The translations under genes were made by a program, and so were the position numbers. This document shows positions 30,423 through 57,945 of a stretch of DNA of 64,000 bases, piece after piece (the first letter of the stretch is position 1; the number at the start of each line of letters is the position of its first letter). The stretch comes from Candidatus Zixiibacteriota bacterium (GTDB lineage Bacteria > Zixibacteria > MSB-5A5 > DSPP01), in the NCBI GenBank assembly GCA_022614805.1, contig JAKEHY010000020.1:89449-153448 (forward strand). Direction: 5' to 3'. The notes below the pieces were generated by a model. That model saw nothing but the letters and a program-made list of their open reading frames with translations. It did not search any database and was not told the origin of the DNA.

Positions 30423-30423
30423 T

Positions 30424-31164: not shown

Positions 31165-31165
31165 A

Positions 31166-32113
31166 CTACCTTTCCTTGGCCAGTTCGACAACGAAACGAT
31201 ATAAAGCATCCAGTTCGGGCTCTGTCAAGAGCTCCCCCGGCATCAGCTTTCCCGGCAGCCCCCCTACGACAATCTTTTCGAACTCCTTTTTGTTCCTCAC
31301 CCAGACGGCGTTCGGATTTTGAAGCGTCGGGGCTTTGGCGTAACGGTAGGGAAAAACCGCCAGCTTTTGCACCGGCTCCCCTCCTTCGCCCGAGGCACCG
31401 TGGCAGGAGGCGCAGCGTTGGACATAAGTCTCTCTGCCAAGGCCGGGTGGCAGGCGGGACAGCTTCCTTCCGACCGGCCCTTCGGGACGGGCCGAGGCCC
31501 GCAGGGCCAAAACAATCGGAATTCTGGGCCCTGCCTTGGCCGTGTCGGCGGCCGTCGCCGTTGCGCCGCCCGAAGTCGGGGCGGCCCCGCCGCCGGTCAG
31601 TTGGGCCGCCACTTCCTTCGTATCGTTGGCCGGATTGGGAATCAAGGTGCGGATGTAATGAATAATGGCGATGCGGTCTTTGGCGGGCAAAAGCTCAAAC
31701 GGGGCCATCGCCGTTCCCGGTGAGCCGACTCTCAAAGTGTTCCAGAGCTGACTGGGGGAGTTGCCGAACTTGAACTTTTCCGTCGCGTAGTTGCGCGGCC
31801 GGGGATTCAATTCCGGCGCCCTATCCCCGTCCCCCTTGCCCGTCGGCCCGTGGCAGGAGGCGCAGTTGACCGCGTACAACATTTTCCCTTCCGCAGCGAG
31901 TTCCGGCGTCGGGTTATACAAGAGCGATAAATCGACGGCCTGCGCCCCGGCTTGCTCGCCGGCCGGCTTGGGCGGCTCTTTTTTCGCTTCCTCCCTTCCC
32001 AGCTTAAAAAAGCTGACGAACGCCCAGAAAACCAGAGCGGCCGAAAGGGCAAAAAGCGGCAGGTATATGAACGGATTCGATTTTTCTATTTTCTCTTCCA
32101 TTCTTGTTTCCAC
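31166..32113 (-). CDS. Membrane-anchored diheme cytochrome c
   Basis: N-terminal TM helix and two CASCH motifs with distal Met candidates (GTAM, GKLM). Confidence 0.85.
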   Translation of the reverse strand: METRMEEKIEKSNPFIYLPLFALSAALVFWAFVSFFKLGREEAKKEPPKPAGEQAGAQAVDLSLLYNPTPELAAEGKMLYAVNCASCHGPTGKGDGDRAPELNPRPRNYATEKFKFGNSPSQLWNTLRVGSPGTAMAPFELLPAKDRIAIIHYIRTLIPNPANDTKEVAAQLTGGGAAPTSGGATATAADTAKAGPRIPIVLALRASARPEGPVGRKLSRLPPGLGRETYVQRCASCHGASGEGGEPVQKLAVFPYRYAKAPTLQNPNAVWVRNKKEFEKIVVGGLPGKLMPGELLTEPELDALYRFVVELAKER

Positions 32114-32124
32114 TCTTTTTTCCT

Positions 32125-32178
32125 GTCCCCCTTACCAAGGGGGACGCCGGCCCCAATTCATCGGGGCAGGCAGGGGGT
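32125..32178. repeat. Composite palindrome (GTCCCCC-N7-GGGGGAC followed by GCCCC-N8-GGGGC)
   Basis: Two adjacent hairpins in the actF to cytochrome c intergenic region. Confidence 0.45.
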
Positions 32179-32216
32179 GCTTTTCACAATCCCGTTATGT
32201 GTGCGGCTCGGCCTCA

Positions 32217-33416
32217 TCATTGTTTCCAGTTCACGCTGGCCAAAAGATGGGGGTCCCGGTGGGCCAGCACCGAATGCTTTCCCAAAAAGCGGAAGACGGT
32301 CCAACCGAAGACTCCGGCAAACCCCAAAAAAGTCCCCAGTTCCATCCAGCCGAAAACCGGCTTCTGCGGGCTTATTACCGGACCGATTAACAAATACAAA
32401 TCCAGAAACTCGCCGAGGATGATGATGGCCGCCGCCGTCAGCATCACTTTTTCGCTCCGCTTTCCGTCCCGTCCCATCAGCATAAAGAAGGGAATGAAAA
32501 AGCGCAGGAAAACCACGGAAAGGAAAATATATCCCCACGGCCAGACCTTCCGCTTAATCAAATAAAACGTCTCTTCCGGCATATTCCCGTACCAGATGAG
32601 CATATACTGCGAAAAACCGATGTAGGCCGAAAAGACGGCAAAGGCGAACATAAAGTTGCCGATGTCCTGCAGGTGGTTGGCGTTGAAGATTCCTTCCAGC
32701 GCCCCCCGGCGCTTGAGCCAGATGGCCAGAATTGCGAGAAAGGCCATCCCGCTCTGGAAAAGCCCGGCGAAGCAGTACACGCCGAAGATGGTGGAATACC
32801 AGTGCGGCTCCAGGGACATAATCGTATCGAACACCGCCAAGGTAAACGTGATGCCAAAAACCGGGAAAAAGACCACGGAAAGTTTGGCCGACTTTTGCGA
32901 AAGCCGGGCGTCGCCGGTTTCGTCCTGCTTCAACGAATTTTTAATTAAAATCAGGGCGAAAAGCACCCAAATGCCCAGAAGGATGAGATTCCGAACCGAA
33001 AAGAAAACGATATTCAAATATCCCAGCTTGCCCGTTCCCAGAGGCGGCTCGATATGCGCCGTCTCCGGATGCGCCCAGGCGTACAATTTTCCCGACCCCA
33101 TTAGCAGTACCAGAAACAAAACGGCGGCAACGGGAAGATAGGAGGCCATCCCTTCCGAGATTCTCCGGACAACCGTTGACCACATCGCCCCGGTGGCGTG
33201 GTGCAGGGCGGTGAAAAAAAGCCCGCACAAACCCCAGAAAAGAAAAAAGGCATACCCCAAAAGCCAGGCCGACCAGGCCCGGGGGGCGTCCACTCTCAAC
33301 CCGGCGAGGAAGGCGATTATCCCGACGGCCCCCAATCCGAAAAGAATCTGATTGGTTCGGGCCGGAACTTTCAAAGGCCCCGGATTTTTGACCGACGTAA
33401 TATGAATTTCGCTCAT
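32217..33416 (-). CDS. actF: Alternative complex III subunit ActF
   Basis: Polytopic NrfD-like protein with SLEPHWYSTIFG, SQYMLIWYGNMPEE. Operon position fits. Confidence 0.9.
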   Translation of the reverse strand: MSEIHITSVKNPGPLKVPARTNQILFGLGAVGIIAFLAGLRVDAPRAWSAWLLGYAFFLFWGLCGLFFTALHHATGAMWSTVVRRISEGMASYLPVAAVLFLVLLMGSGKLYAWAHPETAHIEPPLGTGKLGYLNIVFFSVRNLILLGIWVLFALILIKNSLKQDETGDARLSQKSAKLSVVFFPVFGITFTLAVFDTIMSLEPHWYSTIFGVYCFAGLFQSGMAFLAILAIWLKRRGALEGIFNANHLQDIGNFMFAFAVFSAYIGFSQYMLIWYGNMPEETFYLIKRKVWPWGYIFLSVVFLRFFIPFFMLMGRDGKRSEKVMLTAAAIIILGEFLDLYLLIGPVISPQKPVFGWMELGTFLGFAGVFGWTVFRFLGKHSVLAHRDPHLLASVNWKQ

Positions 33417-33417
33417 A

Positions 33418-34038
33418 CTATCTTTCCGGCCAGAGTTTAGGCGTCGAGGTGTCCGGCTCGTCTTCGGAGAAATCGATTCCCAGTCTCTTCATCAAGGCCA
33501 AATCCGCCGCCGTCGGTCGGGCCGCCCGCTGCAGAACCCGGACGTAGTTCACCACGGCCCAACGCTGGGCCGGGTCCAATTGAAAGGCATAATCGGGCAT
33601 CGTCTGCTGCCCGCGGGAAATGTTGTGGAAGATTCTCCCGTCCGGCCAGTTCCGCACCCGGTCGGTCAAAAGGGACGGCGGCTGCGGAAACTTCGGAATG
33701 ATGTAGCCCCGGCCGTCGCCTTTGGGCCCATGGCAAACGATGCAGAAGGTGTTGAACGACTTCCGGCCGGCCTCCAAAACTTCCAGGGTGGGAGGCAGCG
33801 GGTTGACCAGCTCCGCCGCCGCTTTCAGCGTGTCGCCGGGCCCGTACGGATACGCCTCCCAGTCCCGCGGCACGGTGCCCGTGGCCGGCAGAAACATCGG
33901 CCGCTCCTGGGCTTTCACCGCCGGCGAGTGGGCCATATTCGGCATATACTCCAACATCGGCTTCGACTTTTGCCGCGAGCAGCCCGCCGTCAGAAGCAAA
34001 AGTCCGAAAAGAACGGCTGCCCTAAACTTTTTTGACAT
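33418..34038 (-). CDS. actE: ACIII monoheme cytochrome c lipoprotein ActE
   Basis: Lipobox LTAGC, YMPNM..S, CIVCH, GQQTMP, RWAVVNYVR. Confidence 0.9.
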   Translation of the reverse strand: MSKKFRAAVLFGLLLLTAGCSRQKSKPMLEYMPNMAHSPAVKAQERPMFLPATGTVPRDWEAYPYGPGDTLKAAAELVNPLPPTLEVLEAGRKSFNTFCIVCHGPKGDGRGYIIPKFPQPPSLLTDRVRNWPDGRIFHNISRGQQTMPDYAFQLDPAQRWAVVNYVRVLQRAARPTAADLALMKRLGIDFSEDEPDTSTPKLWPER

Positions 34039-34531
34039 CCAAAGCTCCCGCGTCCTTCAAAAATCGTTCTTCTTCGGCTCCCGTTCCGGTGATGGGAACG
34101 ACCAGGGCGAAATGGTCGTCCGTAACCCGTGAGTCCAAAATTTTCGGATTCCGCTGGGGCAGCCGGCAGGCGGCAAAAAGGGCCAGCAAAGTTGTAACGC
34201 CGGCAAAAAGTACGGTGGTCTCGAAGGTAATCGGAATAAAAGCCGGCCAGGAGACAAACGGCTTTCCCCCCACGTTCAAGGGCCAGTCCACCGCCGAAGT
34301 CCAGGCTTGGAACAAAAATCCGAGACTGCCTCCGGTCACCCCGGCCAGCAGGGTGGCCCACGGCACCCAGGAACGCTTGAGGCCCAAAGCCTCGTTTATC
34401 CCGTGCACGAAATACGGCATATAGGCGTCCAGATTTTTGAAGCCCCGCTCGCGAGCGGCCTTCCCGGCTTTAAGCAGGGTCTGCGGGTCGTCAAAGATTC
34501 CGACCACCGCGCCCGTTACCGCCTTAGCCAT
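34022..34531 (-). CDS. actD: ACIII subunit ActD (DUF3341)
   Basis: [27 protein letters not shown]. Confidence 0.92.
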
Positions 34532-35908
34532 GCACGGCCTCGGCTGGTTGATGGGCTTTCTTGCCGGAAGGATTGACCAGAACTCCCTTCACTTCCGCCA
34601 ACGAAAGTGAAGGCAGAAACCGGGCGAATAAAAAGAAGAAAGTCATAAAAAACCCGAACGAGCCCACGGTCATCCCGATTTCGTAAATCGTCGGGGCGTA
34701 GGTATCCCAGCTGGCGGGCAGAAAATCCCGGTGCAGCGAGGTGACGATGATGGTGAAGCGCTCGAACCACATCCCGATGTTGACGAAAATCGAGACGATA
34801 AACATCGTCAAAATGTGCCGCCGCGCCCGTTGGAACCAGAAAAGCTGCGGGATGAAAAAGTTGCAGGTGACCATAATCCAGTAAGCCCAGGCAAACGGTC
34901 CGAAGGCCCGGTTCCAGAAAGTGAAGCGCTCGTACGGGTTTTCCGAATACCAGGCCGTGAAGGCCTCGGTCATATAGGCGTACCCCACCATCCAGGAGGT
35001 AACTAAAATGATTTTGTTCATCATCTCCAAGTGGTAGATGCCGATGTATTCCTCCAGCCGGAACACACGGCGCAAAACCACGAGCAAAGTCATCGCCATC
35101 GCAAAGCCGGAAAAAATCGCCCCCGCCACGAAGTACGGCGGGAAAATGGTGGTGTGCCAGCCCGGCAAAAGCGAAACGGCGAAATCGAACGAGACGATGG
35201 AGTGAACGGAAAGCACGAGCGGGGTGGACAAGGCCGCCAGAAGCAGATACGCCTTTTCGTAATGGTTCCAATCCCGGGCCGAGCCGGTCCAGCCCAGCGA
35301 AAAGATTCCAAAAATCAATTTCTTAAGCTTGGAGGTGGTCCTATCCCGCACGCTGGCCAGGTCCGGAACCAGCCCCTGATACCAGAAGCAAAGGGAGATG
35401 GTCAAATAGGTGGAAACGGCGAAAACGTCCCAGAGCAAAGGGGAGCGGAAATTCACCCACAAAAGCCGCTCATTCGGGTATGGAATGAGCCAGTAGGCGT
35501 ACCAGGTGCGCCCCAGATGGATGAGCGGGAAAAGCCCGGCGGTCATCACGGCAAAAATGGTCATCGCTTCCGCCGACCGGTTGATGGAAGTCCGCCAGCG
35601 CTGGCGCAAAAGAAACAAAATGGCCGAAATCAAAGTCCCGGCGTGGCCGATGCCGATCCAGAAAACGAAATTGGTGATGTCAAAAGCCCACATCACCGGG
35701 TTGCGCAGCCCCCAGACGCCGACACCGTGTATCTGTTGCATCGCCACTGCCCAGACGCCAAATAGCAGGGCCGCCAAGGAAATGCTCATCCCCAGATACC
35801 AGAGCTTTCCCGGCTTCTCGATGGGGCGCAAAACGTCGGCGGTCACGTCCGCCATCGTGATGCGGGGCGGAATCAGGGGGGGGTTGGAAAGGACGTCCGC
35901 TTCCACGC

Positions 35909-35912
<4 letters not shown>
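34524..35912 (-). CDS. actC: ACIII quinol-binding subunit ActC (NrfD/PsrC family)
   Basis: [41 protein letters not shown]. Confidence 0.95.
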
Positions 35913-39004
<3,092 letters not shown>

Positions 39005-39005
39005 C

Positions 39006-39512
39006 TTAATTATGACAGGTTATGCACTCGATGGAAGCCTTGTTCTGCCGGTGGCAGTCCACGCACCACCCCATATTCAGCTTTTGCACTTGAACGATTT
39101 TATCCATTGTCTCCACCGGCCCGTGGCAGGTCTGGCAGGCTACCCCCTTGGCCAAGTGCCAGCGGTGGGAAAAGTAGGTGAAATCCGGCAGGGCGTGCAC
39201 CCGCACCCAGGCGATGGCCGAATCCGCTTTGTAGGCGGCGGCTAATTTGATGACGTTCTCCTTGGTGACCGCCACCGATTTGTGGCAGCCCATGCAGACG
39301 TTCATCGGCGGCACCGTGGCGTGGCGCCCCTTTTCGGCGGGAGCATGGCAGTACAGACAGGGAATTTTGTTGTCTCCAGCGTGAATTTTGTGGGAGAAAG
39401 GGAGCGGCTGTTCGGGGGCGTAGCCGACATTGGTGTTCAGCTCGGCAATCACCCAACCGCCATACCCCAAAACCGCCAAAACGATGAGGGTCACCTGCCA
39501 CTTTCGACCCAT
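39006..39512 (-). CDS. actA: ACIII pentaheme cytochrome c ActA
   Basis: Five CxxCH motifs (CLYCH, CMGCH, CQTCH, CVDCH, CITCH), N-terminal TM helix, QPLPFSHKIH. Confidence 0.93.
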   Translation of the reverse strand: MGRKWQVTLIVLAVLGYGGWVIAELNTNVGYAPEQPLPFSHKIHAGDNKIPCLYCHAPAEKGRHATVPPMNVCMGCHKSVAVTKENVIKLAAAYKADSAIAWVRVHALPDFTYFSHRWHLAKGVACQTCHGPVETMDKIVQVQKLNMGWCVDCHRQNKASIECITCHN

Positions 39513-39688: not shown

Positions 39689-39736
39689 TTGACTTTCACG
39701 CCCCGTGAACTATCTTTTTCCTCGTAGGGTGGGATA
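39689..39736 (+). promoter_or_regulatory. Sigma70-type promoter of the fibre operon, with a palindromic spacer and a downstream AGGGTGGGATA motif
   Basis: TTGACT-N16-TATCTT. The spacer contains TTCACG-CCC-CGTGAA. Confidence 0.5.
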
Positions 39737-39835: not shown

Positions 39836-41494
39836 ATGAAACGCACCACAATGCTTTCGGCAGCGGGGATTCTGTTGCTCTGCTCGATGGTATGGGCACT
39901 TGTCCCGAGCGTAGTCAAAGGAGCCGTCCCCCAGCTCATCAACTTTCAGGGTATCTTGAGAGACGGCTCCGGCAATCCGGTGGCGAACGGCCCGTATCCC
40001 GTCATCTTCACGATTTACGATGCCTCTGCCGGAGGTAATGTTCATTGGGCGGAAACAACTTCTGTAATTACAACCAGCGGGCTTTTTTCGGTTCTTTTGG
40101 GTTCTGCGAATCCCGTTCCCGATTCCGCTTTTAACAACCCGAACCGCTGGTTGGGGATTAAAGTCGGCGGCGACCCGGAGATGACACCGAGGCAAAAACT
40201 GGTTTCGGTTGGTTATGGCTATCGTGTCAGCTCGGTGGATGGTGCCTTGGGCGGCAATATTCTTACCAAAGTTTCCATTGGTTCGGGGCATAGCAACACA
40301 GGGATATCCGCTTTCGTCGCAGGGGACAGCAACTCGGCTTTCGGGGATTATTCTACAATCGGCGGCGGCAGGTTTAACCAAGTGTATGGAGATTTTGCGA
40401 CGGTCAGCGGCGGCGATTCAAACCAAGCAGTAAACGACGGCAGCACTGTTGGCGGCGGCCGCAAAAATTTTGGGGTGGGTAATTTTACAACAATTGGCGG
40501 TGGCTCCCAAAATTTCGCGAGCGGACAAAACGGCACGGTCGGCGGTGGTCGAGGCAACCTTGCCAACGCTCTTGAGGCTACGGTCGGCGGCGGCGGGAAC
40601 AATGGGGCCAGTGCTATTGGAGCCACGGTCGGTGGCGGCAGAGGGAACACCGCTGGCGGGGATTACGCCACGGTCGGCGGCGGCACAGGTAATGTCACAA
40701 GCGGCGGCTTTTCCACTATTCCCGGTGGTGTCAACAACTACGCCTTTGGCGGCTCCTTTGCCGCCGGTGTGGGGGCAAAGGCCAATCACTCCCACGCCTT
40801 TGTTTGGTCTGATAACAGCGGTGGCGATTTTGCATCCACTGGCAGCAACCAGTTCCTCATCCGCGCTTCGGGAGGGGTGGGTATCGGAACGAACAGCCCC
40901 AACCAAATGCTGGATGTCGCCGACAATATTAGCATTCGAGGAACCCATCTTATTTACAACTCAGCGAATGGCGTCATCGATTGGGGACCGGGCGGCGACC
41001 TTATCTTTCGGCGGCTTGCTACGCAGGGAGACATCAGCGTCTATACGGAGCACATGATAATTAAGGGCGGCGGCAACGTCGGCATCGGAACCTTTGCTCC
41101 CGTCTACAAGCTGGACGTGGCCGGTTCGGCCCACGCCACCAGCTTTCCCACTTCTTCGGATAACCGGCTGAAGAAAAACATCGAACCCTTGACCAAAGTT
41201 TTGGAGAAGATAGAAAAGATTCGCGGCGTTTCCTTCGACTGGAACGAAACCTACGAGAAGATGGGGCGTTCTTCCGGCCACCGGGAAATTGGGGTCATCG
41301 CCCAGGATGTTGAGAAGGTTTTCCCCGAACTCATTTCAAAATGGGGAGACGAGCATTATCGCGGAGTGGACTACGGCCGGATGACGGCGGTTTTGATTGA
41401 AGCGGTCAAAGAACTAAAAGCTGAAAATGAGGAATTGAGAAACAGAATTTTGAAATTGGAGAAAGGCAAACCCCAAGCGCAGGTAGAACATTAA
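39836..41494 (+). CDS. Secreted tail-fibre-like trimeric protein 1 (conserved N-module, Gly-rich beta-roll repeats, peptidase S74 chaperone, coiled coil)
   Basis: Signal peptide, VPQLINFQGILRD module, about 14-aa ATVGGG..N repeats, SDNRLKKNI...GVIAQDVEKVFPEL. Confidence 0.8.
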   Translation: MKRTTMLSAAGILLLCSMVWALVPSVVKGAVPQLINFQGILRDGSGNPVANGPYPVIFTIYDASAGGNVHWAETTSVITTSGLFSVLLGSANPVPDSAFNNPNRWLGIKVGGDPEMTPRQKLVSVGYGYRVSSVDGALGGNILTKVSIGSGHSNTGISAFVAGDSNSAFGDYSTIGGGRFNQVYGDFATVSGGDSNQAVNDGSTVGGGRKNFGVGNFTTIGGGSQNFASGQNGTVGGGRGNLANALEATVGGGGNNGASAIGATVGGGRGNTAGGDYATVGGGTGNVTSGGFSTIPGGVNNYAFGGSFAAGVGAKANHSHAFVWSDNSGGDFASTGSNQFLIRASGGVGIGTNSPNQMLDVADNISIRGTHLIYNSANGVIDWGPGGDLIFRRLATQGDISVYTEHMIIKGGGNVGIGTFAPVYKLDVAGSAHATSFPTSSDNRLKKNIEPLTKVLEKIEKIRGVSFDWNETYEKMGRSSGHREIGVIAQDVEKVFPELISKWGDEHYRGVDYGRMTAVLIEAVKELKAENEELRNRILKLEKGKPQAQVEH

Positions 41495-41512
41495 CCCAAA
41501 GAGGAGGAGCGT

Positions 41513-43435
41513 ATGAAACGCATCCCGGTTTTAACAAAGCTGACAGCGCTTTTGGCGCTGTGGACGGTAGCAGTCTGGGCAGCAGTCCCCCAACTCATCA
41601 ACTTTCAGGGCGTTTTGCGGGACGGCTCCGGCAATCCGGTGGCTAACGGCTCCTATTCCGTCATCTTCACCATTTACGATGACCCAGCCGCTGGAAACGT
41701 GCTCTGGGCGGAAACGACTTCCGTTTCAACCACCAGCGGCCTTTTCACGGTTCTTTTGGGTTCGACAAATCCGGTTCCCGATTCCGCTTTCCGGGACACC
41801 ACTCGCTATCTTGGAATTAAAGTCGGCGCCGACCCGGAGATGACGCCGCGGCAACGGTTGGTTTCGGTCGGTTATGGCTATCGAGTTAGTTCAGTGGATG
41901 GCGCCCTGGGTGGAAATATCCTTACGAAGGTCTCCATCGGCCCGGGGCACACCAATACCGGCACCAACGCCTTTGTGGCTGGTGAAAATAACAAAGCTCG
42001 CGGGAATTATTCGGTAGTCAGCGGCGGCGGGGGGGCAAATGTTGCCGACTCAAACTCTGCAAATGGAGCCTTGTCCACCGTCTCTGGAGGCTCATATAAC
42101 GCAGCAGGCGGTGTTGGGGCAACGGTTGACGGAGGGGTCAATAACCGCGCAAGCGGCGATTATTCAACCGTCGGCGGCGGGGGGGGTAACTCGGCAAATG
42201 CTGACAATGCAACAGTCAGCGGCGGCTACAACAACAATTCAAGTGGCGGCCAAGCCTTTATAGGTGGCGGAGCGAGCAATACTGCAAGCGGGGGCGCTGC
42301 TGTGGTTGGTGGCGGACAGTTAAATACGGCGAACGGCTTAAATACCGCCACAGTTGGAGGTGGGTACGACAATTCCGCCAGCGGCTCTTATTCCACAGTC
42401 GGCGGCGGCCAGGTCAATGTCGCCAGCGTCAGTTGGGCCACGGTCGGTGGCGGCAACGCCAACACGTCGAGCGGCTCTTATGCCACGGTCGGCGGCGGCT
42501 TCAGCGACACGGCCAGCGGCTTTATTTCCACAGTCCCCGGAGGTTTGGCAAACAAAGCATCCGGCGGTTATTCCTTCGCCGCCGGTCGCCGGGCCAAAGC
42601 GCTTCATGATGGGTCCTTTGTATGGGGTGATCGAGGCGACTTTACTTTTGGAACCGATTTTGCTTCTACGAATATCAATCAGTTCCTAATCCGCGCCTCC
42701 AACGGGGTGGGGATCAACACCAATAGTCCCAACAAAGCGCTCACCGTCGCCGGCTCAATGGAAATCGGGACGGGCGCGGGGGATTACCAGCACCTTCGCC
42801 TCGGAGGCGGCAACTCCTCCGGCTTTCTTTTCGGCAGCTATCCAAGTCTTGGCGATGGAATCCATATGTCGTACAATTATTATTCCAACGGACCCAACTT
42901 TGTAATAAATCCGGGCGGGGGGACCAGCCGTATTTCGGTGGGATATGGAGAAATTAGGATGACTGTGGGCGATATAGGTTCGCCACCCACCCAGCTTGGT
43001 ATTTTTATTGGTTATCCGGGCAATGTCGGCATCGGGACTTTGGCCCCGGCGGCCAAGTTGCACGTTAACGGTACGGCGGGGAACAACACCGGGGTTTGGT
43101 CCAACCTTTCGGACCGACGACTGAAGCGGGATATTGAGCCGATTCAAAATGCCTTGGAAACAGTGGAACAACTTAACCCGGTGAGCTTCCGGTGGAAGGA
43201 TGCAGAAAAAGATGCCCAATTTGGGCGGGTTCGGGGATTGATTGCCCAAGACGTGGAAAAAGTCATTCCGGAATGGATAAAAACCGACCCGGATGGTTAC
43301 AAACGTCTTGAACCGATTGGGATAGATGCTTTACTCATTGAAGCCCTCAAAGAACAACAGAAGCAAATAGAGGTGTTAAAAGAGGAGATTGCGAAACTGA
43401 AAGACCAATCGTCTCAAGCACAGGCGAAAAATTAA
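41513..43435 (+). CDS. Secreted tail-fibre-like protein 2 (same architecture, more repeats, different tip)
   Basis: N-module nearly identical to gene 1 at DNA level. SDRRLKRDI...GLIAQDVEKVIPEW S74 domain. Confidence 0.8.
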   Translation: MKRIPVLTKLTALLALWTVAVWAAVPQLINFQGVLRDGSGNPVANGSYSVIFTIYDDPAAGNVLWAETTSVSTTSGLFTVLLGSTNPVPDSAFRDTTRYLGIKVGADPEMTPRQRLVSVGYGYRVSSVDGALGGNILTKVSIGPGHTNTGTNAFVAGENNKARGNYSVVSGGGGANVADSNSANGALSTVSGGSYNAAGGVGATVDGGVNNRASGDYSTVGGGGGNSANADNATVSGGYNNNSSGGQAFIGGGASNTASGGAAVVGGGQLNTANGLNTATVGGGYDNSASGSYSTVGGGQVNVASVSWATVGGGNANTSSGSYATVGGGFSDTASGFISTVPGGLANKASGGYSFAAGRRAKALHDGSFVWGDRGDFTFGTDFASTNINQFLIRASNGVGINTNSPNKALTVAGSMEIGTGAGDYQHLRLGGGNSSGFLFGSYPSLGDGIHMSYNYYSNGPNFVINPGGGTSRISVGYGEIRMTVGDIGSPPTQLGIFIGYPGNVGIGTLAPAAKLHVNGTAGNNTGVWSNLSDRRLKRDIEPIQNALETVEQLNPVSFRWKDAEKDAQFGRVRGLIAQDVEKVIPEWIKTDPDGYKRLEPIGIDALLIEALKEQQKQIEVLKEEIAKLKDQSSQAQAKN

Positions 43436-43453
43436 TTTAAAAGGAGGCGTCAA

Positions 43454-45004
43454 ATGAAACGTTTTACCATACTATCTGGACTCGGAATGGCGCTTTTCCT
43501 CGTGTCCGTTGCTTATGCCGCCATCCCCCAGCTTATCAACTTTCAGGGCATTTTGAAAGACGGCTCCGGCAACCCGGTGGCCAACGGGAGCTATTCCGTC
43601 ATTTTCACGATTTACGATGCCCCCTCCGCCGGGAACGTGCTCTGGGCGGAGACGACTTCCGTTTCCACTACCAGCGGCCTTTTTTCGGTTCTTTTGGGTT
43701 CGGCAAATCCGGTTCCCGATTCCGCTTTCCAAGACACTGCTCGCTATCTCGGCGTTAAAGTCGGGGCCGACCCGGAGATGACGCCGAGGCAAAAACTGGT
43801 TTCGGTTGGGTATGCCTATGAATCGGCACAGTGGACTTCCGCCGCTCAAAATTTATTCCGCTTGAGTGGAAACGTCGGCATCGGCACGAACATTCCGCTG
43901 GGACTCCTGCATCTCAAAGGCAGCAATTACAAATTGCTTTTGGAAAGTTCCGGCAACGCAGACGTGGTCATCGGCCGTGCGGATGCCACCCGGTACGGCA
44001 ACTACATTCTGGCGGACGGCGACCCGAGCGTCGGGGCCAACAACCGCTGGGCAATTGGGCTGCGGAACGGCGACTCCAAACTGCACCTGTATGACGAAGT
44101 GAACAGTTCGAACGTGATGGTCTTGCAGCCGGGCGGCAATGTCGGCATCGGAACGGCCTCGCCCGCGGCGCAGCTCCACGTACATGACCCGATCAATTCC
44201 ATCCTGGGCAGTCGGCTGATGTTGACGCAGGCTGCGGGCGGCTCAACTATTTTTGACGGGTTGGCAGTAATTGGTACGCCCCCAAAAGGGTATTTGTGGA
44301 ACTATGAGAACGGACCTTTAATCTTCGGAACCAATGACGCGGAGCGGCTGCGCATCGATTCGGCCGGCAACGTCGGCGTCGGTATCGATGCGCCGGCCGC
44401 CCGGCTGCAGGTGGGCCTCGCGGGCATCGAAGGGACACCACCATTCATCGCCGGGACCCAGATTGTCGCCCAAGCGACAAACGGGGGCAACTGGGCGCAT
44501 ATGGCTATCATCTCCAGCAGTTCGGGCCAGTCGCGCTTGAACTTCGGTGATGCCAGCAACGACGACCAGGGGTCGGTGGCCTACAACAACTTCAACGATG
44601 CGATGTTTTTCATCACCGCGGCTGCCGAACGGATGCGCATTACGAACACCGGCAATGTCGGTATCGGAACAAGCGCCCCGAACAGTCGCTTGCAGGTCAA
44701 TGGCGCCCTTGCCACGGCGGTTACCGCGATTACCGTGAACTCTACGTTGAACGAGTCCCACAGCATTGTTTTGGCAAGCACGCCCGGTGTAAGTGATGTC
44801 GTCATTACCCTTCCGACAGCGGTTGGAATCGCGGGCCGGCAGTACACCATAAAGAAAGCGGACGCTGCGGCGCATACTGTAGTGGTGGATGCCAATGGCG
44901 CCGAAACCATCGACGGGGCTTTTTTGTACAATCTGACCGCACAAAACAAATATGTAACATTGGTCAGCAACGGCGCAAATTGGTTTGTCATAGCCAATAA
45001 TTGA
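43454..45004 (+). CDS. Secreted tail-fibre-like protein 3 (N-module, GNVGIGT repeats, phage-type C-terminal beta domain, no S74)
   Basis: Shared N-module. C-terminus ITLPTA...GRQYTIKK.D...AETIDG...LVSNGANWFVI. Confidence 0.75.
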   Translation: MKRFTILSGLGMALFLVSVAYAAIPQLINFQGILKDGSGNPVANGSYSVIFTIYDAPSAGNVLWAETTSVSTTSGLFSVLLGSANPVPDSAFQDTARYLGVKVGADPEMTPRQKLVSVGYAYESAQWTSAAQNLFRLSGNVGIGTNIPLGLLHLKGSNYKLLLESSGNADVVIGRADATRYGNYILADGDPSVGANNRWAIGLRNGDSKLHLYDEVNSSNVMVLQPGGNVGIGTASPAAQLHVHDPINSILGSRLMLTQAAGGSTIFDGLAVIGTPPKGYLWNYENGPLIFGTNDAERLRIDSAGNVGVGIDAPAARLQVGLAGIEGTPPFIAGTQIVAQATNGGNWAHMAIISSSSGQSRLNFGDASNDDQGSVAYNNFNDAMFFITAAAERMRITNTGNVGIGTSAPNSRLQVNGALATAVTAITVNSTLNESHSIVLASTPGVSDVVITLPTAVGIAGRQYTIKKADAAAHTVVVDANGAETIDGAFLYNLTAQNKYVTLVSNGANWFVIANN

Positions 45005-45024
45005 CGTCCATTTTCGATTTTCTA

Positions 45025-45051
45025 AGGGGCACGGCGATGCCGTGCCCCTAC
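45025..45051 (-). repeat. GTAG-type REP palindrome, possibly acting as a terminator for the fibre operon
   Basis: Minus strand GTAGGGGCACGGCATCGCCGTGCCCCT, followed on the plus strand by TTTTT. Confidence 0.7.
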
Positions 45052-45101
45052 TTTTTCAGCCGTTGACACTTTCGGGAGCTCCCTCTAATTTCCGTCGCTC
45101 T

Positions 45102-46202
45102 ATGAAAGTCGTCGGCTTTAACCAGACCGGCTCCGTCTCCAACATTGAAGTGCTGGAATCTCCAGCGCCTGGGAAATTGAAAGAGGGCGAAGTCCGTCTT
45201 AAATTTCTCTCCGGCAGTTTGAACCATCTTGATTTGTGGGTTATAAAAGGGCTGCCCCATATTAAATACCAATTTCCCCACATTGCCGGCTCGGATTTCT
45301 GCGGAAAAGTGGTCGAGTCCCGCTCGGAAAAGTTCAAAATTGGCGATAGAGTTTTGGTTTATCCCGGCGGCAGCTCCGGCACAGACGCCAGAGAATACCT
45401 GCCGGAAAACCTGCGGGACGATTTTTTGATACGCGGGGAAAATTCCCCAGGCGTTTTGCGGGAGGAGCTGGTGGAGCCAGAAAAATATTTGACAAAAGCT
45501 CCCGAACATCTGACGGACGAGCGGGCCGGCGCCATTCCCCTTGCCTTTTTGACCGCTTGGCAGATGGTGGTTGAGAAGGGATTTTCACAGCCAAACTATG
45601 ACCTTTCAGGCAGGGGTTTGATTAATCAAACCCCTACTGGAGGTCTGAAGACCTCCGCTACCATTTTGGAAAGAATCGAGCCCGTTTTGGTTCACGCCGC
45701 CGTTAGCGGCGTTTCGCAAGCAATTTTGGAGCTTTTGCTGTCTTTCGGTTTCAAAAAAATTGCCGCCACGTCACGCTCGGAGGAAAAATTGGAGATTTGG
45801 AAGAAGCGCGGCGTGCAAGGATTCATCTCCGGCCCTAATCTGGAAACCGAACTGAAAACCTGGGCGGGCAAAACCCGTTTTGGCCTGATTTTCGACCATG
45901 TGGGAGAAGTTTATTTCGAGATGAACATCCGTTTGTTAAGAAAGGGCGGCAAGTTCATCACCTGCGGTTCAACGTCGGGCTTCAAAGCCGCGCTGGATTT
46001 GCGCCACGTATTCTTCCGTCAACTGCAACTCTTGGGTTCGACGATGGGGAGCGTGCAACAGTTCAAGACGATGGTCAACTGGGTCGCCGAAAGAAAAATT
46101 GTTCCCTTGGTTTCGCATACCTTCCCCTTCGACAACCCCAAACCGGCCTACGAGCTTATGGAAGCCGGCCGCCAAAACGGGAAAATTGTTCTGACCGCGT
46201 AA
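45102..46202 (+). CDS. MDR-superfamily (zinc-binding ADH-like/quinone) oxidoreductase carrying an in-frame REP insertion
   Basis: LNHLDLW, PHIAGSDFCG, FLTAWQM, LRKGGKFITCG, LGSTMGS, GKIVL. Start at ATG 45102. Confidence 0.85.
   Translation: MKVVGFNQTGSVSNIEVLESPAPGKLKEGEVRLKFLSGSLNHLDLWVIKGLPHIKYQFPHIAGSDFCGKVVESRSEKFKIGDRVLVYPGGSSGTDAREYLPENLRDDFLIRGENSPGVLREELVEPEKYLTKAPEHLTDERAGAIPLAFLTAWQMVVEKGFSQPNYDLSGRGLINQTPTGGLKTSATILERIEPVLVHAAVSGVSQAILELLLSFGFKKIAATSRSEEKLEIWKKRGVQGFISGPNLETELKTWAGKTRFGLIFDHVGEVYFEMNIRLLRKGGKFITCGSTSGFKAALDLRHVFFRQLQLLGSTMGSVQQFKTMVNWVAERKIVPLVSHTFPFDNPKPAYELMEAGRQNGKIVLTA
45610..45661 (-). repeat. Intragenic REP doublet
   Basis: Minus strand GTAGCGGAGGTCTTCAGACCTCC-A-GTAGGGGTTTGATTAATCAAACCCCTGC, nearly identical to 25298-25350. 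Confidence 0.85.
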
Positions 46203-46209
46203 AAAGGGC

Positions 46210-46258
46210 TTGACATCCTTCGCAGCCCCAAGCTATCTTCTCCCCACAGGGTGGGATA
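46210..46258 (+). promoter_or_regulatory. Sigma70-type promoter of fibre gene 4, with a downstream AGGGTGGGATA motif
   Basis: TTGACA-N18-TATCTT, then AGGGTGGGATA at 46248. Confidence 0.5.
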
Positions 46259-46419
46259 AGCCAATAGGCGTTTTTAACTTCTGAAAGCAGCCGTTGGCGC
46301 TCCGGCTGGAACGTCAACGAGAAAATAACAGAAACAAAAAACCAAAGGGCGGGGTGTTTTTGCGCCTATTGGATGACCCAATACGCCGGACGCCTCACCC
46401 AAACCAAGGGGAGGTCCAA

Positions 46420-48813
46420 ATGAAGCGCTTTACAATGTTTTTGGGCTTGGGGTCGCTGGTGCTCTCGCTGGCGTGGGTTCTTGCCCCGGGCGTGGCCGAG
46501 GGTATTGTCCCCGAACGCATCAACATTCAGGGCATCCTGCGGGATGTAGGGGGAAATCCGGTGGCGGACGGTTCCTACTCGGTCATCTTTACCATCTACA
46601 ATGCCGACATCGGCGGCTCCGTTTTCTGGGCCGAAACCACTTCGATAGGCACCACGGACGGTTTGTTCAACTATCGTATGGGGGCGGCCAATCCGATTCC
46701 GGATACGGCCATCCGGCTCAATACTTGGCTGGGGATTACAGTTGGCGCCGACCCGGAAATGACCCCCCGCACGCGGCTGACTTCTGTAAGCCACGCCTTC
46801 AAGGTCAGCACCGTACAGGGCGCACAGGGGGGAGTTATTTCGGGGGATGTGGCGATAGACACGGGGAACATCCTATTAGCCGGGTCCGGGCCAGATGACA
46901 TCTTATCCCTATCGGTCTCCGACCCAAATATCGCTTTGGAGTTACGGTCGGGAACCTTTGGCGGAGATCCATATATCGACTTCTCAAACGATGCCGCCAG
47001 CGACTACGACGCACGCATTCAGTTGTTGGGAGACGCCGGTTTGAAAATCGACGTTCCCTCGACTCTCGCCATCCCCACCGGCAAAGTCGGCATCGGGACG
47101 ACCACACCCGGCTCGTTACCGGGTATCTTGCAAAATTCCCGCCTGGAAGTAGCCGATGCCAATGGGCTCAATAGCGATGTTTCATTACGTGTTTCGGGAG
47201 GGGGGGCAACCGGTTCCGCATCTTTGAATTTTGCCAAGTCGAGAGGCACCTTGCCCTCCCCAACCAGTGTCCAGTCCGGCGACTTTTTGGGGAATATCAC
47301 CTTCGTCGGTCATGATGGATCGGACTTTGGAAGTATCGCTGCCTGGATCAGGGGATCTGTCGATGGCACGCCGGGCGTGGACGATATGCCCGGTCGTCTC
47401 GAGTTTTTGACCACACCAGATGGTTCCGCCACACCGTCAACACAGATGACGATAAACAATGCAGGCAAAGTCGGCATCGGAACGACCACGCCCGGCTCGT
47501 TACCGGGTATCTTGCAAAATTCCCGCATAGAAGTAGCCGATGCCAATGGACTCAATAGCGATGTTTCATTACGCGTTTCGGGAGGGGGGGCAACGGGTTC
47601 GGCATCTTTGAATTTTGCCAAGTCGAGAGGCACCTTGTCCTCTCCAACAATCGTCCAGTCCGGCGACCTTTTGGGGAATATGACTTTCGTCGGTCATGAT
47701 GGATCAGACTTTGGAAGTATCGCTGCCTGGATCAGGGGTGTAGTGGATGGCACCCCGGGTGTAGACGATATGCCCGGCCGCCTCGAGTTTCTGACTACAC
47801 CAGACGGCTCGGCCACAGCGGCAACGCGGATGACGATAGATAACGCCGGCAACGTCGGCATCGGGACGAACACACCGTCGCAGAAATTGAGCGTAAATGG
47901 TAACATTAGTGGTGGTAGTCTTATCGTGGGGTCCACCGGTTGCATTGACCCGAGCAGTGGTTTGCAGCTTTCGACCTCGGGAGATCTCATAACCCGTACC
48001 GGTTCACAATGCGGCGGCACGCTACGTTTACATCTCGATGGAACCACTGGCAACTTCGGCATCGCGACGCAAGGCTTCGCCCCGGTTGCTCCTTTGGAAG
48101 TCCGCAGCTTGGATGCTACTCATGTTGCGGTTGCCGAAATCAATCGGGTAGCCAACGATGGAATTTTGATAAGATTTTCTCGAAGCGGTAGTACTAACGT
48201 TGGGAACATCTCCGTTGCGGCCGGTGCCGTCTCCTACAACGCCTTCACCGGCTCGCACTACGGCTGGACGGATGAAGCGATTGAGCGGGGAGAGCTGGTT
48301 ACCTTATCGGGCGTAAATTGTAACTCACACGACAACCTCGAATCGGAAATTATTTACGGAATCAAGCGGTCAAGTGTTCCCAACGACCCGGCTTGCTTGG
48401 GGTCCTTTCTGGCGCTTGCGGAGCCGTCCAAACCGGCCAGCACAGACAATCCGCATTTGGTTATGGCCGTGGGCAACGGCGTTATGTGGGTGGTGGATGA
48501 AGGGCAAAACATCCAGCCCGGCGATTATCTGATTTCCTCCTCCACTCCCGGCCATGCGATGAAGGATGATGAGACGAAATATCCCATCGGCCATATCGTC
48601 GCCCGGGCGGCGGAAGGAGTTGACTGGTCAACCGTGAGCGAAATGGCCGGTGGCCACAAGCACAAAAAAATCTCGGTTTTGTTCGGGAATTTCGTGCGCT
48701 CCAGTGTCGCTTCCGTAAACCGGATGCTTCAGCAGCAACAGATGGAAATAGAGCAGTTGAAAGAAACGCTCAAACAAATGCAGGCCGAAAAGCCGCAAGC
48801 GAAAGTGGAGTAG
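46420..48813 (+). CDS. Secreted tail-fibre-like protein 4 (diverged N-module, 128-aa tandem duplication, chaperone-like C-terminal domain, coiled coil)
   Basis: GGAGG SD and ATG 46420. VPERINIQGILRD module, VGIGT repeats, SYNAFTGSH...GDYLISSSTPGHAMK. Confidence 0.75.
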   Translation: MKRFTMFLGLGSLVLSLAWVLAPGVAEGIVPERINIQGILRDVGGNPVADGSYSVIFTIYNADIGGSVFWAETTSIGTTDGLFNYRMGAANPIPDTAIRLNTWLGITVGADPEMTPRTRLTSVSHAFKVSTVQGAQGGVISGDVAIDTGNILLAGSGPDDILSLSVSDPNIALELRSGTFGGDPYIDFSNDAASDYDARIQLLGDAGLKIDVPSTLAIPTGKVGIGTTTPGSLPGILQNSRLEVADANGLNSDVSLRVSGGGATGSASLNFAKSRGTLPSPTSVQSGDFLGNITFVGHDGSDFGSIAAWIRGSVDGTPGVDDMPGRLEFLTTPDGSATPSTQMTINNAGKVGIGTTTPGSLPGILQNSRIEVADANGLNSDVSLRVSGGGATGSASLNFAKSRGTLSSPTIVQSGDLLGNMTFVGHDGSDFGSIAAWIRGVVDGTPGVDDMPGRLEFLTTPDGSATAATRMTIDNAGNVGIGTNTPSQKLSVNGNISGGSLIVGSTGCIDPSSGLQLSTSGDLITRTGSQCGGTLRLHLDGTTGNFGIATQGFAPVAPLEVRSLDATHVAVAEINRVANDGILIRFSRSGSTNVGNISVAAGAVSYNAFTGSHYGWTDEAIERGELVTLSGVNCNSHDNLESEIIYGIKRSSVPNDPACLGSFLALAEPSKPASTDNPHLVMAVGNGVMWVVDEGQNIQPGDYLISSSTPGHAMKDDETKYPIGHIVARAAEGVDWSTVSEMAGGHKHKKISVLFGNFVRSSVASVNRMLQQQQMEIEQLKETLKQMQAEKPQAKVE
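47080..47847 (+). repeat. Two tandem 384-bp direct repeats inside fibre gene 4
   Basis: GGCAAAGTCGGCATCGG starts at 47080 and 47464, with very high DNA identity between units. Confidence 0.9.
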
Positions 48814-56219: not shown

Positions 56220-57020
56220 TCAACACGGAAAAGGTCTGAATAAGAAGACTGCATATATTTCCAGCACGATGTCTGCCGCAGAGCGAGTCCCATCGCAATT
56301 CAGGTCGCAAGCGGCTACCCCGGTGAGGGGAGGGGAGCAGGTGTCGCAAAAGGTGCAGTTTATAAGCAAAACTATATCGGCGGCAGTTAAGGAAAAGTCC
56401 AAATTCAAATCCCCTTTAGGAGCCTGCACTACGGTAATGACGCTTTTTAGGAAGTTGACCCTTACATCCTGTGGTACAGTGTTGGTAAAATACACATACC
56501 AATTTGCTGATGAATCAAGGTCAAATGTTCCCGTCGCCGCTCGCACAGTGTCGAACTTTAGCTCCCAAACTGCTTTCCGGGTAGCGTTGGGGGGCTCTAT
56601 GGTGGACGGGTCGACCCCGTCAGCGCCAGCAGCGACAGAAAAAAAATCTGGACTGTTGTTGTCGTAGTTGGGAAAGCCGACCGCTGTAAAGTAACGAAAT
56701 GTATTGGTTAGGGGGTTCACGACGCCAAAAAAGTTTCGGGGACAAGGACAAGCAACGATGGCATAGGCCCCGCCGGAAGTGGAGGTCACTTCCACCGGCA
56801 AAACCATATAGATGAGCGAATCCTTATTGGTTATGAAAACTTTCACGTACAAATAAGAGGCGGTGTCGGTCACTGCCCCCGGGTGGGCGCCGGGAGCGAC
56901 CGTTTTGGACTCCAAAATGACGGAATCCCGCGGGTCGGGGGGCTGGGAAAAGGCAGAAGACGCTCCCAAAAGAAACAGCACCACCCTTGCGGCAATTGCG
57001 GCTGGTCTTTTTATCATCAT
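56220..57020 (-). CDS. Secreted cohesin-like plus dockerin protein, copy A
   Basis: Signal peptide, beta-rich ~170-aa domain, C-terminal KGDLNLD..TAADIV...CDLNCDG..SAADIV dockerin. Confidence 0.7.
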   Translation of the reverse strand: MMIKRPAAIAARVVLFLLGASSAFSQPPDPRDSVILESKTVAPGAHPGAVTDTASYLYVKVFITNKDSLIYMVLPVEVTSTSGGAYAIVACPCPRNFFGVVNPLTNTFRYFTAVGFPNYDNNSPDFFSVAAGADGVDPSTIEPPNATRKAVWELKFDTVRAATGTFDLDSSANWYVYFTNTVPQDVRVNFLKSVITVVQAPKGDLNLDFSLTAADIVLLINCTFCDTCSPPLTGVAACDLNCDGTRSAADIVLEIYAVFLFRPFPC

Positions 57021-57076
57021 AAGCTTAACCTTACGTCAAATATCGAAGTCAAATCTCAAGAAAGCAAGCTCGATTT

Positions 57077-57889
57077 TCACGCATTGCATGGAAAAGGACT
57101 GAATAAGAAGACCGCATATATTTCCAGCACAATGTCCGCGGCGGAACGCCTTCCGTCGCAGTTCAGGTCGCAGGCGGCCGCACCTGGGAGCGGGGGTGGA
57201 CAGGTGTCGCAAAAGGTGCAGTTTATAAGCAAAACTATATCAGTGGCAGTTAAGGCAAAATCTAAATTTAAATCCCCTTTGGGAGCAGGCGCTACCGTGA
57301 CGGTACTTTTGAGGAAGTTGACGTTTACATCCAGTGATACGTTGTTTGTGAATCGTACACGCAGACCACCCAGTCTTGTTGAATCAAACTTAAAGGTTCC
57401 GGTTTCAGATCGCACAGTGTCGAACTTTAGCTCCCAAACTGCTTTCCGGGTAGCGTTGGGGGGCTCAATGGTGGACAGGTCGACCCCGTCAAAGCCTGCA
57501 GCTACTGAAAAAATATCCGGGCTATTGTTATCGTAGTTGGAGAAGCTGACCGCTTGGAAGTAACGCAAAGTGTTGGTCAGGGGGTTCACGACACCCAAAA
57601 AGCTCCGCGGACAAGGACAAGCAACGATGGCATAGGCCCCGCCGGAAGTGGAGGTCACTTCCAGAGGCAAAGTCAAATAGGTGAGCGAATCTTTATTGGT
57701 TATGAAAACTTTCACGTGCAAATAAGAAGCAGTGTCGTTCAGTGCACCCGGGTGGGCGCCGGGAGCAACCGTTTTGGATTCCAAAATGACGGAATCGCGG
57801 GGGTCAGGGGGCTGGGAAAAAGCAGGAGATACCCCCAAAAGAAACAGCACTACCCCGGCGGCAATTGCAGCTGGTCTTTTAAGCGGCAT
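57077..57889 (-). CDS. Secreted cohesin-like plus dockerin protein, copy B
   Basis: Tandem paralog of copies A and C with a shared intergenic sequence. Confidence 0.7.
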   Translation of the reverse strand: MPLKRPAAIAAGVVLFLLGVSPAFSQPPDPRDSVILESKTVAPGAHPGALNDTASYLHVKVFITNKDSLTYLTLPLEVTSTSGGAYAIVACPCPRSFLGVVNPLTNTLRYFQAVSFSNYDNNSPDIFSVAAGFDGVDLSTIEPPNATRKAVWELKFDTVRSETGTFKFDSTRLGGLRVRFTNNVSLDVNVNFLKSTVTVAPAPKGDLNLDFALTATDIVLLINCTFCDTCPPPLPGAAACDLNCDGRRSAADIVLEIYAVFLFSPFPCNA

Positions 57890-57945
57890 ATGGTTACCCT
57901 TACATCAAATATCGAAGGCAAATCTCAAAAAAGCAAGCTCGATTT

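Follow-up and report, generated by a model that had tools for sequence, protein, structure and literature searches.

The fibre gene array

The window analysed here, a stretch of 64,000 nucleotides from contig JAKEHY010000020.1 of a Candidatus Zixiibacteriota genome (positions 89,449 to 153,448 of the forward strand), carries four genes, g1 to g4 (Table 1), that very probably encode chromosomal fibres of the superfamily named MAT (mosaic adhesive trimer), which resemble phage tail fibres, and that should work by the mechanism proposed below. The MAT model was published for Bdellovibrio in 2024 (PMC10769870), so this reading, although we consider it right, is not new, and the fibre family is already known to be widespread; what is new is the repertoire of the Zixibacteria, which is a new host phylum for the model, and a lead to a partner of the fibre base.

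The spacers between g1 and g2 and between g2 and g3 are 18 nt each. All four genes are preceded by a strong Shine-Dalgarno (SD) sequence at 5–8 nt, AGGAGG in g1 and g3, GAGGAGG in g2 and GGGAGG in g4, as had been noticed in an original prediction made from the letters of the window and a list of its open reading frames (ORFs). The ORF of g4 spans 46294–48813, with the ATG of an MKR start at 46417 as the probable initiation codon. Since a strong terminator-like hairpin and a gene for a dehydrogenase separate g3 from g4, the first three genes appear to be one operon, with g4 as a unit of its own. The predicted array of four is thus real as far as its fibre genes are concerned, but g4 is set apart and the four are only a part of the 19 paralogs in the genome.

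Table 1. Positions in the window of the fibre genes, their domains and other features
Feature	Position	Strand	Evidence and remarks
Promoter-like site 5' of g1 (tentative)	39689–39716	+	Consensus scan, 9/12 match
g1, MAT-type fibre, S74 subtype, 552 aa	39836–41494	+	ORF, SD AGGAGG, PF13884, NF053851, PDB matches to UspA1 and Bd2133
g1 signal peptide	39836–39922	+	29 aa, cut between VKG and AVPQ; n/h/c regions, small residues at -3/-1; AF2 helix 2–22
g1 constant N-module (β-sandwich)	39923–40228	+	Alignment, AF2, NF053851 match to residues 24–92
g1 Gly-rich UspA1/YadA-head-like repeat stalk	40313–40879	+	aa 160–348; phmmer against PDB, 3pr7 (UspA1), E 2.2e-24
g1 S74 intramolecular chaperone/protease	41156–41332	+	Catalytic S441-D-N-R-L-K446; PF13884, residues 441–499
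g2, MAT-type fibre, S74 subtype, 640 aa	41513–43435	+	Starts 18 nt past the g1 stop
g2 N-module	41582–41887	+	
g2 45-bp Gly-rich repeats	42376–42525	+	
g2 S74	43109–43279	+	S533, SDRRLK; PF13884, aa 533–589
g3, MAT-type fibre without S74, 516 aa	43454–45004	+	ORF, NF053851, 8ond match
g3 N-module	43520–43825	+	
g3 Bd2133-like stalk	44309–44725	+	8ond (Bd2133), E 2.1e-11
g3 '...NWFVIANN' tip	44726–45001	+	Also in three paralogs on contigs C13 and C25
Terminator-like hairpin closing the g1–g3 unit	45025–45049	+	Stem of 11 bp, 9 GC pairs, T-run
Zn-dependent dehydrogenase gene, between g3 and g4	45042–46202		Pfam scan
Promoter-like site 5' of g4 (tentative)	46210–46239	+	TTGACA-18-TATCTT, 10/12 match
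g4, MAT-type fibre without S74, 798 aa	46417–48813	+	ORF, NF053851, 8ol4/8oml matches
g4 N-module	46501–46800	+	
g4 stalk tandem duplication	47080–47876	+	384 bp (128 aa), 2.1 copies, 89% identical; Tandem Repeats Finder
g4 Bdellovibrio-MAT-like stalk	47386–47919	+	8ol4, E 4.3e-10; 8oml, E 9.3e-10
g4 unique tip	48091–48810	+	No Pfam family
Frame with dockerin-like domain	4829–7222	-	
Frame with dockerin-like domain	56220–57020	-	
Frame with dockerin-like domain	57077–57889	-	
Frame with dockerin-like domain	57946–58758	-	

Signal peptides and the constant N-module

The proteins of g1–g4 and all 18 paralogs with an N-module in the genome begin with a signal peptide that has an MKR or MRR n-region, a hydrophobic core and small residues at -3 and -1, judged heuristically by these n/h/c features and by the two residues. 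The MKR-type signal peptides that had been predicted for the four genes thus have canonical features in all of them, and the predicted cleavage site lies immediately 5' of the sequence (A/I)(V/I)PxLINxQG. Some of the signal peptides contain a Cys, but lipoprotein anchoring through it was rejected, since it lacks conservation and position -1 is taken by Leu.

The domain that follows, here called the N-module, comprises about 100 residues and is common to all four proteins, as predicted, with an amino acid identity of 83–88% within g1–g3 and of 60–64% to g4. At the DNA level the modules of g1–g3 had been called near-identical, which does not hold, the measured identity being only 80.7–86.0% over 300 nt (70–95% per 60-nt window). 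The g1 module is modelled by AlphaFold2 (AF2) as a β-sandwich with a predicted local distance difference test (pLDDT) score of 93–98 over residues 31–125. A search of the PDB with this fold gave no match at E ≤ 0.001 and returned only generic sandwiches like those of immunoglobulin (Ig) and macroglobulin (MG) domains, and Caulton et al. likewise report no PDB homologue for the N-domain of the Bdellovibrio proteins (PMC10769870). Weak matches to small phage Ig-like domains were found in the BFVD, three of them at E ≤ 0.001 with 4.1e-4 as the best.

Stalks, S74 domains and tips

Gly-rich repeats are located downstream of the N-module in g1 and g2, and their predicted likeness to YadA agrees with the match of g1 to the head of UspA1. 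Sequence searches of the PDB with the stalks of g1, g3 and g4 gave matches to crystal structures of MATs from Bdellovibrio (8ond, 8ol4/8onf, 8oml, 8on4 and 8ojn), with E-values from 2.1e-11 to 1e-7. VGIGTxxPxxxL motifs are found one to four times in each of the four proteins, where the original prediction had named GNVGIGT repeats. The duplicated module in the stalk of g4 begins with GKVGIGTTTPG, and the 384-bp duplication suggests a recent change in fibre length.

The S74 chaperones that had been predicted in g1 and g2 are recognized by PF13884 with 69.2 and 66.1 bits respectively (cut-off 22), and the catalytic SDxxxK motif is intact in both, at S441 (SDNRLK) and S533 (SDRRLK). The S74 region of g1 also matches MyRF (7dc3) and a phage long tail fibre (6f45). 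PF13884 was not found in g3 or g4, and the tips of these two proteins show no Pfam family even at a relaxed threshold. With the S74 types g4 shares only a C-terminal 'KPQAKVE' helix.

Assignment to the MAT family

The NCBIfam model NF053851 (Bdello_MAT_N, 'mosaic adhesive trimer family chimeric fiber protein') matches all four N-modules with E-values from 1e-8 to 5e-3 (8.6e-4 for g1 and 1e-8 for g3), and it matches 62 of 63 N-terminal pieces of paralogs and of relatives that span many phyla, the best with an E-value of 5.8e-12. The alignments indicate that the N-module is likely homologous to the N-domain of the Bdellovibrio MATs, with the cut-off of this subfamily model not reached.

The Bdellovibrio MATs have a conserved β-rich domain right after the signal peptide, variable tips, a surface location and an unknown anchor, and strain HD100 encodes 21 of them, 13 with S74 and 8 without (Caulton et al. 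2024, Nat Microbiol, PMC10769870). The same order of signal peptide and β-rich N-domain is found in all 18 N-module paralogs of the genome. The stalks are predicted to be of the trimeric β-helix type and contain modules like those of Bd2133, Bd1334 and Bd2439 by the sequence matches given above, so that direct matches extend to NF053851, 8ond, 8ol4, 8oml, 8on4 and 8ojn. The C-termini are either S74 domains with SDxxxK, in g1 and g2, or other tips, in g3 and g4, and there are about 20 paralogs per genome with exchangeable tips in both cases. The capping loops of Bdellovibrio MATs (VG-x-x-x-x-P-x-x-x-L, with the motif V-G-G/N-pi-x-x-P-x-x-x-L) may have their counterpart in a motif that is one residue longer, VG[IV]G-x-x-x-P-x-x-x-L (VGIGTxxPxxxL), with 1–4 copies per gene, a likeness at the level of sequence only.

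Four points count against the assignment. The NF053851 scores, 17–35 bits, are all under the curated cut-off of 60 bits; the alignments cover only positions ~2–82 of the 162 in the profile; the N-module is ~100 aa long and that of Bdellovibrio ~130 aa; and the MATs bear neither a C-terminal domain (CTD) of the type IX secretion system (T9SS) nor a dockerin-like tail, with no outer-membrane route identified, although the genome has a T9SS with SprA and 35 TIGR04183 (CTD) proteins, none of them a MAT gene. The proteins of g1–g4 are also shorter than those of Bdellovibrio, 516–798 aa against ~1,000 aa, and they come from a phylum with no known predatory lifestyle.

The match of g1 residues 160–348 to the UspA1 head (E 2.2e-24), and the Gly-rich β-roll repeats of g1 and g2 in general, might suggest trimeric autotransporter adhesins (type Vc) of the YadA/UspA1 kind. 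The C-terminal β-barrel translocator that anchors and defines such adhesins was, however, not found by Pfam in any of the four proteins, which end instead in S74 domains or small tips; their conserved module is N-terminal, so that the constant and variable ends are reversed in polarity compared with YadA. This interpretation was rejected as barely conceivable.

An origin as tail fibres of a prophage, a tailocin or an extracellular contractile injection system (eCIS) elsewhere in the genome would account for the many matches of the stalk and S74 parts, which cover more than 30 PHROG tail-fibre families with E-values down to 1e-33, and for the features shared with phage S74 fibres and tailspikes such as the K1F endosialidase and the T5 L-shaped fibre (PF13884), namely a C-terminal S74 domain, the SDxxxK dyad and a VGIGT motif before it. 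These matches never reach residues 1–160, however, and neither the 50,697 phage genomes searched by tblastn nor IMG/VR gave a match to the N-module. Sec signal peptides are present on all copies, the MAT genes are scattered over 8 contigs amid housekeeping genes, and Phage_sheath_1, Baseplate_J and HK97 capsid proteins were not found anywhere in the genome by searches that were positive in control genomes. The flanks of the array hold an operon for alternative complex III and genes for a metallophosphoesterase, a DUF92 protein and a polyprenyl synthetase, and no phage genes, so the statement that the neighbourhood is free of phage genes was correct. The original prediction had named two findings that would speak for a phage origin, a known baseplate-binding domain in the N-module and a tailocin or eCIS locus elsewhere; both were examined and neither was found. 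A prophage, tailocin or eCIS origin is largely refuted by the absent tail, sheath and capsid genes and by the phage-free N-module, and it was rejected as extremely improbable.

For proteins of the MAT type the following mechanism can be proposed. Each protein would be exported by Sec, and its signal peptide would be cut right before the conserved N-module, which is predicted to fold as a β-sandwich and, by analogy with Bdellovibrio, may form the base of the fibre next to the cell. The Gly-rich β-roll or β-helix stalk should trimerise, judging from its homology to the solved trimeric structures of UspA1 and the Bdellovibrio MATs. Trimer folding followed by self-cleavage is established for the S74 family. 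In g1 and g2 the domain would likewise aid the folding of the trimer and then cleave itself off at S441 and S533, where the motif is found, and thereby bare the tip; g3 and g4 would bear other tips, without a chaperone. Displayed on the surface, the tips would bind differing ligands on other cells or particles, and the repertoire would diversify through recombination that keeps the 5' module constant, as the silent sites of g1–g3 suggest. The likeliest partner of the base is a single-copy exported protein of 201 aa that is treated below as a lead.

Genomic repertoire and mosaic evolution

The source genome (2.56 Mb, 93% complete), that of an uncultured bacterium, has metagenome-assembled genomes (MAGs) of Zixibacteria as its closest named relatives, among them RBG-1 of the same order. 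The N-module is found 18 times in it, and together with a C-terminal fragment that lies at the end of a contig this gives 19 MAT genes on 8 contigs, a lower bound since two copies are clipped at contig ends. At the level of genes clipping is seen in three, at the start of C4, the start of C15 and the end of C25. The repeated N-module probably breaks the assembly, and the real copy number may exceed 19. Exactly 7 S74 domains are found in the genome, all within MAT genes; by their C-termini the MAT genes thus divide into 7 with S74 and at least 10 without. Four copies have the '...NWFVIANN' tip of g3 and three a 'TAQR...VYNT' tip, the rest being unique, and the same tips are found on different stalks among the 19 paralogs.

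Silent sites were compared at fourfold-degenerate positions of identical residues. In pairs of g1–g3 they are 62–69% identical in the N-module and 31–41% in the rest of the gene, the latter being near saturation (p 8e-5 to 4e-3), and the 5' module of these three genes therefore shares a more recent ancestry than their distal parts. Against these three, the silent sites in the N-module of g4 are saturated. Gene conversion of the base would leave such a pattern, and so would recombination that joins different distal parts to one base; the mosaic reading is in line with the common tips of paralogs that have different stalks. The absence of the N-module from phages, the lack of virion genes, the silent sites and the recurring tips together support the central claim of the original prediction, that these are secreted, non-phage fibres of trimeric type with a constant docking module, exchangeable tips and an unknown anchor.

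Distribution of the N-module and role of the fibres

A profile of the N-module found 1–30 copies in 34 of the 41 genomes of the Zixibacteria class. By a pattern scan of species-representative genomes the module is also present in Calditrichota, Omnitrophota, Planctomycetota, Chloroflexota, Myxococcota, Gemmatimonadota, WOR-3, GN15 and Verrucomicrobiota, and in every case among these phyla it is preceded by a signal peptide. The proteins of Omnitrophota are giant, >2,000 aa, and those of Myxococcota include the cultured Polyangium. MATs are listed by Caulton et al. for Omnitrophica, Myxococcales, Bradymonadaceae, Uabimicrobium, Micavibrio and bacteria of the Fibrobacterota-Chlorobiota-Bacteroidota (FCB) group, and Zixibacteria are not among them (Supplementary Table S3 of PMC10769870). 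A conserved neighbour common to all phyla was not found around the MAT genes. One MAG labelled 'uncultured Ignavibacteria bacterium SRP119689_co1_142' (CAZSIT01..., loci L019–L021, L025 and L053) belongs to the same genus as the Zixibacteria genome of the window, and its public label is probably wrong.

Loci labelled Omnitrophota or 'Planctomycetia' (L069, L074, L081, L084–L088, L091 and L093) encode giant MAT-type proteins of 1,700 to >2,800 aa in a conserved synteny, behind a protein of ~200–270 aa with a winged helix-turn-helix (wHTH) and a transmembrane segment (TM) and an RluD-like gene, in genomes where the core of the partner protein described below was not detected. The wHTH-TM protein and RluD were considered as functional neighbours in Omnitrophota and rejected as lineage synteny.

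In 2024 it was proposed that Bdellovibrio uses the fibres to recognise many prey surfaces, their mounting on the cell being left open (Discussion of PMC10769870). The same role, with the Zixibacterium as a predator or epibiont, would concern the biology of the fibres and not their family. The 19 MATs in 2.56 Mb match or exceed the copy number of B. bacteriovorus (21 in HD100), Supplementary Table S3 of Caulton et al. stresses predator-associated lineages, and related N-modules are found in Omnitrophota and Myxococcota. No link between Zixibacteria and predation was found in the literature searched, however, a respiratory operon adjoins the array, N-modules are also frequent in Chloroflexota and Gemmatimonadota, neither of them known for predation, and Caulton et al. 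themselves write 'predatory and otherwise' (PMC10769870). Prey or host recognition of this kind is accordingly regarded as unlikely. A small-genome and non-predatory-looking Zixibacterium devotes 19 genes to MAT-type fibres, and the N-module is a feature of the whole class and of many phyla, which argues for a general system of cell-surface recognition and not for a speciality of predators.

A candidate partner of the fibre base

All ORFs of 78 MAT-centred loci were clustered in the search for a partner, and the analysis of neighbourhood and co-occurrence that had been suggested for finding the anchor yielded a candidate, here called the mini-protein. It consists of a signal peptide, a core of 49 aa with the consensus xxLxWxSINxGGxxxxSSTNYxxGxSxGQxVxGxxxSxNYxxxxGFW and a variable tail. 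The core is present in 26 of the 78 loci, and in 24 of these 26 it starts 100–510 nt after the end of the MAT ORF on the same strand. Among the 41 genomes of the Zixibacteria class, 33 have both MAT and mini-protein, one has MAT only, none has the mini-protein only and seven have neither, the absences sitting in two families and thus corresponding to few independent events. In one class of Chloroflexota with 61 genomes the numbers are 33, 3, 0 and 25 in the same order (Fisher p 4e-14), with 87 mini-proteins and 103 MATs, a copy-number correlation of rho 0.80 and many tandem MAT-mini pairs. The question of the MAT anchor is thereby made directly testable, as these uncharacterised proteins track the MATs by position and by presence and absence in two unrelated phyla.

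The tail of the mini-protein is a T9SS type-A CTD in many Zixibacteria-like genomes and a dockerin-like domain ending in Cys in others, the source genome included. Chloroflexota have either a short (Y/F)LP(L/V)VxK motif as the tail or proteins of ~850 aa headed by the core. The core proteins of the Chloroflexota loci L055, L062, L065, L071, L054 and L090 end in (V/L)(Y/F)LP(L/V)(V/A)xK (...GLYLPLVMKHRVP, ...RVYLPLVTRH, ...VYLPLALKEYGD, ...LFLPLVEK), and this end occurs both in mini-proteins of 95–120 aa and in proteins of 840–870 aa; perhaps it serves as a signal for sorting or strand donation that has yet to be described.

The source genome has exactly one copy of the mini-protein gene, at C1:282853–283458, with its own SD and an MKR start, which encodes 201 aa and adjoins tig, clpP and clpX. 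A relative with the same synteny has a MAT gene and a second core protein between the mini-protein gene and tig. At E ≤ 1e-3 a search of 1.84 billion proteins gave at least 3,539 cluster representatives of the core family, and every named homologue is 'hypothetical'. No Pfam family was found for the core at E ≤ 0.05 in three mini-proteins scanned, where Pfam matches were confined to the tails. The possibility that the core is a decayed copy of the MAT N-module was rejected (hhalign probability 0.1). The mature N-terminal strand of the MAT was considered as a free donor for the mini-protein; this is unsupported, residues 35–40 being an integral strand of the sandwich in the AF2 monomer model.

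The preferred role of the mini-protein is that of an adaptor that would hold the N-module and fix the fibre to the surface by its tail. We tentatively propose it as the missing partner of the MAT base, a possibility rather than an expectation, which would bind the N-module, fold on binding, tie the fibre to the surface through tails specific to the lineage and perhaps take it through the outer membrane; the 19 fibres would then share one such gene. If the mini-protein binds the fibres, it should bind their constant part, because there is a single copy for 19 fibres with at least six types of tip. The AF2 model of the dockerin-like tail is confident and that of the core is not, and an unstructured core, though highly conserved, would suit a segment whose folding requires a partner or oligomerisation.

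Other results are unfavourable to the proposal. The mini-protein adjoins no MAT in the source genome; its core fails to fold as an AF2 monomer, with a pLDDT of 41–51; and a profile search of 20 genomes with MATs from other phyla did not detect the core in 8, namely Polyangium, a Myxococcales MAG, three Omnitrophota, two Planctomycetota and one Verrucomicrobiota. Furthermore, a chaperone of the tail-fibre-assembly type would also suit its place directly downstream of fibre genes.

A chaperone for fibre assembly, like the assembly proteins of phage tail fibres, is the main rival to the adaptor, though a doubtful one. Genes of the Tfa/gp38 type in phages sit directly downstream of the fibre genes, and the mini-protein genes are found directly 3' of MAT genes on the same strand, in nearly 1:1 copy numbers in Chloroflexota, with a core that is modelled as unstructured when alone. 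The mini-protein has, however, its own signal peptide, and lineages of the FCB type add a T9SS CTD or a dockerin-like export tag that would be needless for a periplasmic chaperone. A single copy would have to serve the 19 fibres and their diverse tips in the source genome, and mini-proteins also follow MATs that already have an S74 intramolecular chaperone.

If the fibres were released as soluble lectins or depolymerases resembling tailspikes, no anchor would be needed, and a membrane anchor, a lipobox, a CTD or a dockerin-like tail was indeed not found on any MAT; the tip of g3 is also faintly like the C-terminal domain of a phage depolymerase, at a non-significant E-value of 0.098. A release of this kind is nevertheless very unlikely, as the strong conservation of the N-module, by purifying selection or homogenisation, suggests a common binding partner, the homologues in Bdellovibrio are located on the surface (PMC10769870), and the MATs co-occur tightly with a partner that bears surface-sorting tags.

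The core also resembles PamT, the predicted tip pilin of the Pam pilus in the candidate phyla radiation (CPR), whose operon neighbourhoods hold a 'tail fibre-like protein' (bioRxiv 2026, PMC13278184; NF058579). The match covers positions 25–78 of the 241 in the PamT profile, with 24–37 bits (cut-off 240) and E-values from 1.9e-9 to 1.7e-5, and as far as the sequences go the likeness is that of a shared module and not of family membership. Only about a quarter of PamT is covered by the mini-protein, which differs from it also in its T9SS CTD or dockerin-like tails and in its context of tig, clpP and clpX instead of a pam operon. Pam pilins and chaperones were not seen here either, though no search was aimed at them. 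If the adaptor proposal is extended to PamT, the same docking module would mount tail-fibre-like adhesins on CPR pili.

The dockerin-like tag and other features of the window

The dockerin-like C-terminal domain, ~65 aa ending in ...PFPC, was found in 55 frames of the genome, four of them in the window, and in 48 of the 55 it is located at the very C-terminus. The domain is borne by unrelated secreted proteins (β-helix, FG-GAP/VCBS and BNR-like) and is matched weakly by the Pfam family Dockerin_1 (E 2e-4 to 1e-2). Next to the 35 T9SS type-A CTD proteins, it has the behaviour of a sorting or anchoring tag specific to the lineage. Three neighbouring proteins of 266–270 aa at 56220–58758 were considered as cohesins, but Pfam gives only a weak dockerin tail and no cohesin, and the idea was rejected.

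The promoter-like sites upstream of g1 and g4 come from a consensus scan in which the count of such sites was not above that in shuffled sequences. The operon of the alternative-complex-III type (28860–39512, minus strand) adjoins the array on its upstream side, in the opposite orientation, and includes a cytochrome c7-like protein, a Mo/FeS subunit of 1,031 aa, NrfD and c-type cytochromes. The hairpin downstream of g3 overlaps the listed GTG start of the dehydrogenase ORF (45042), and the true start of the dehydrogenase is probably a downstream codon near 45102, from which the protein would begin with MKVVGF.

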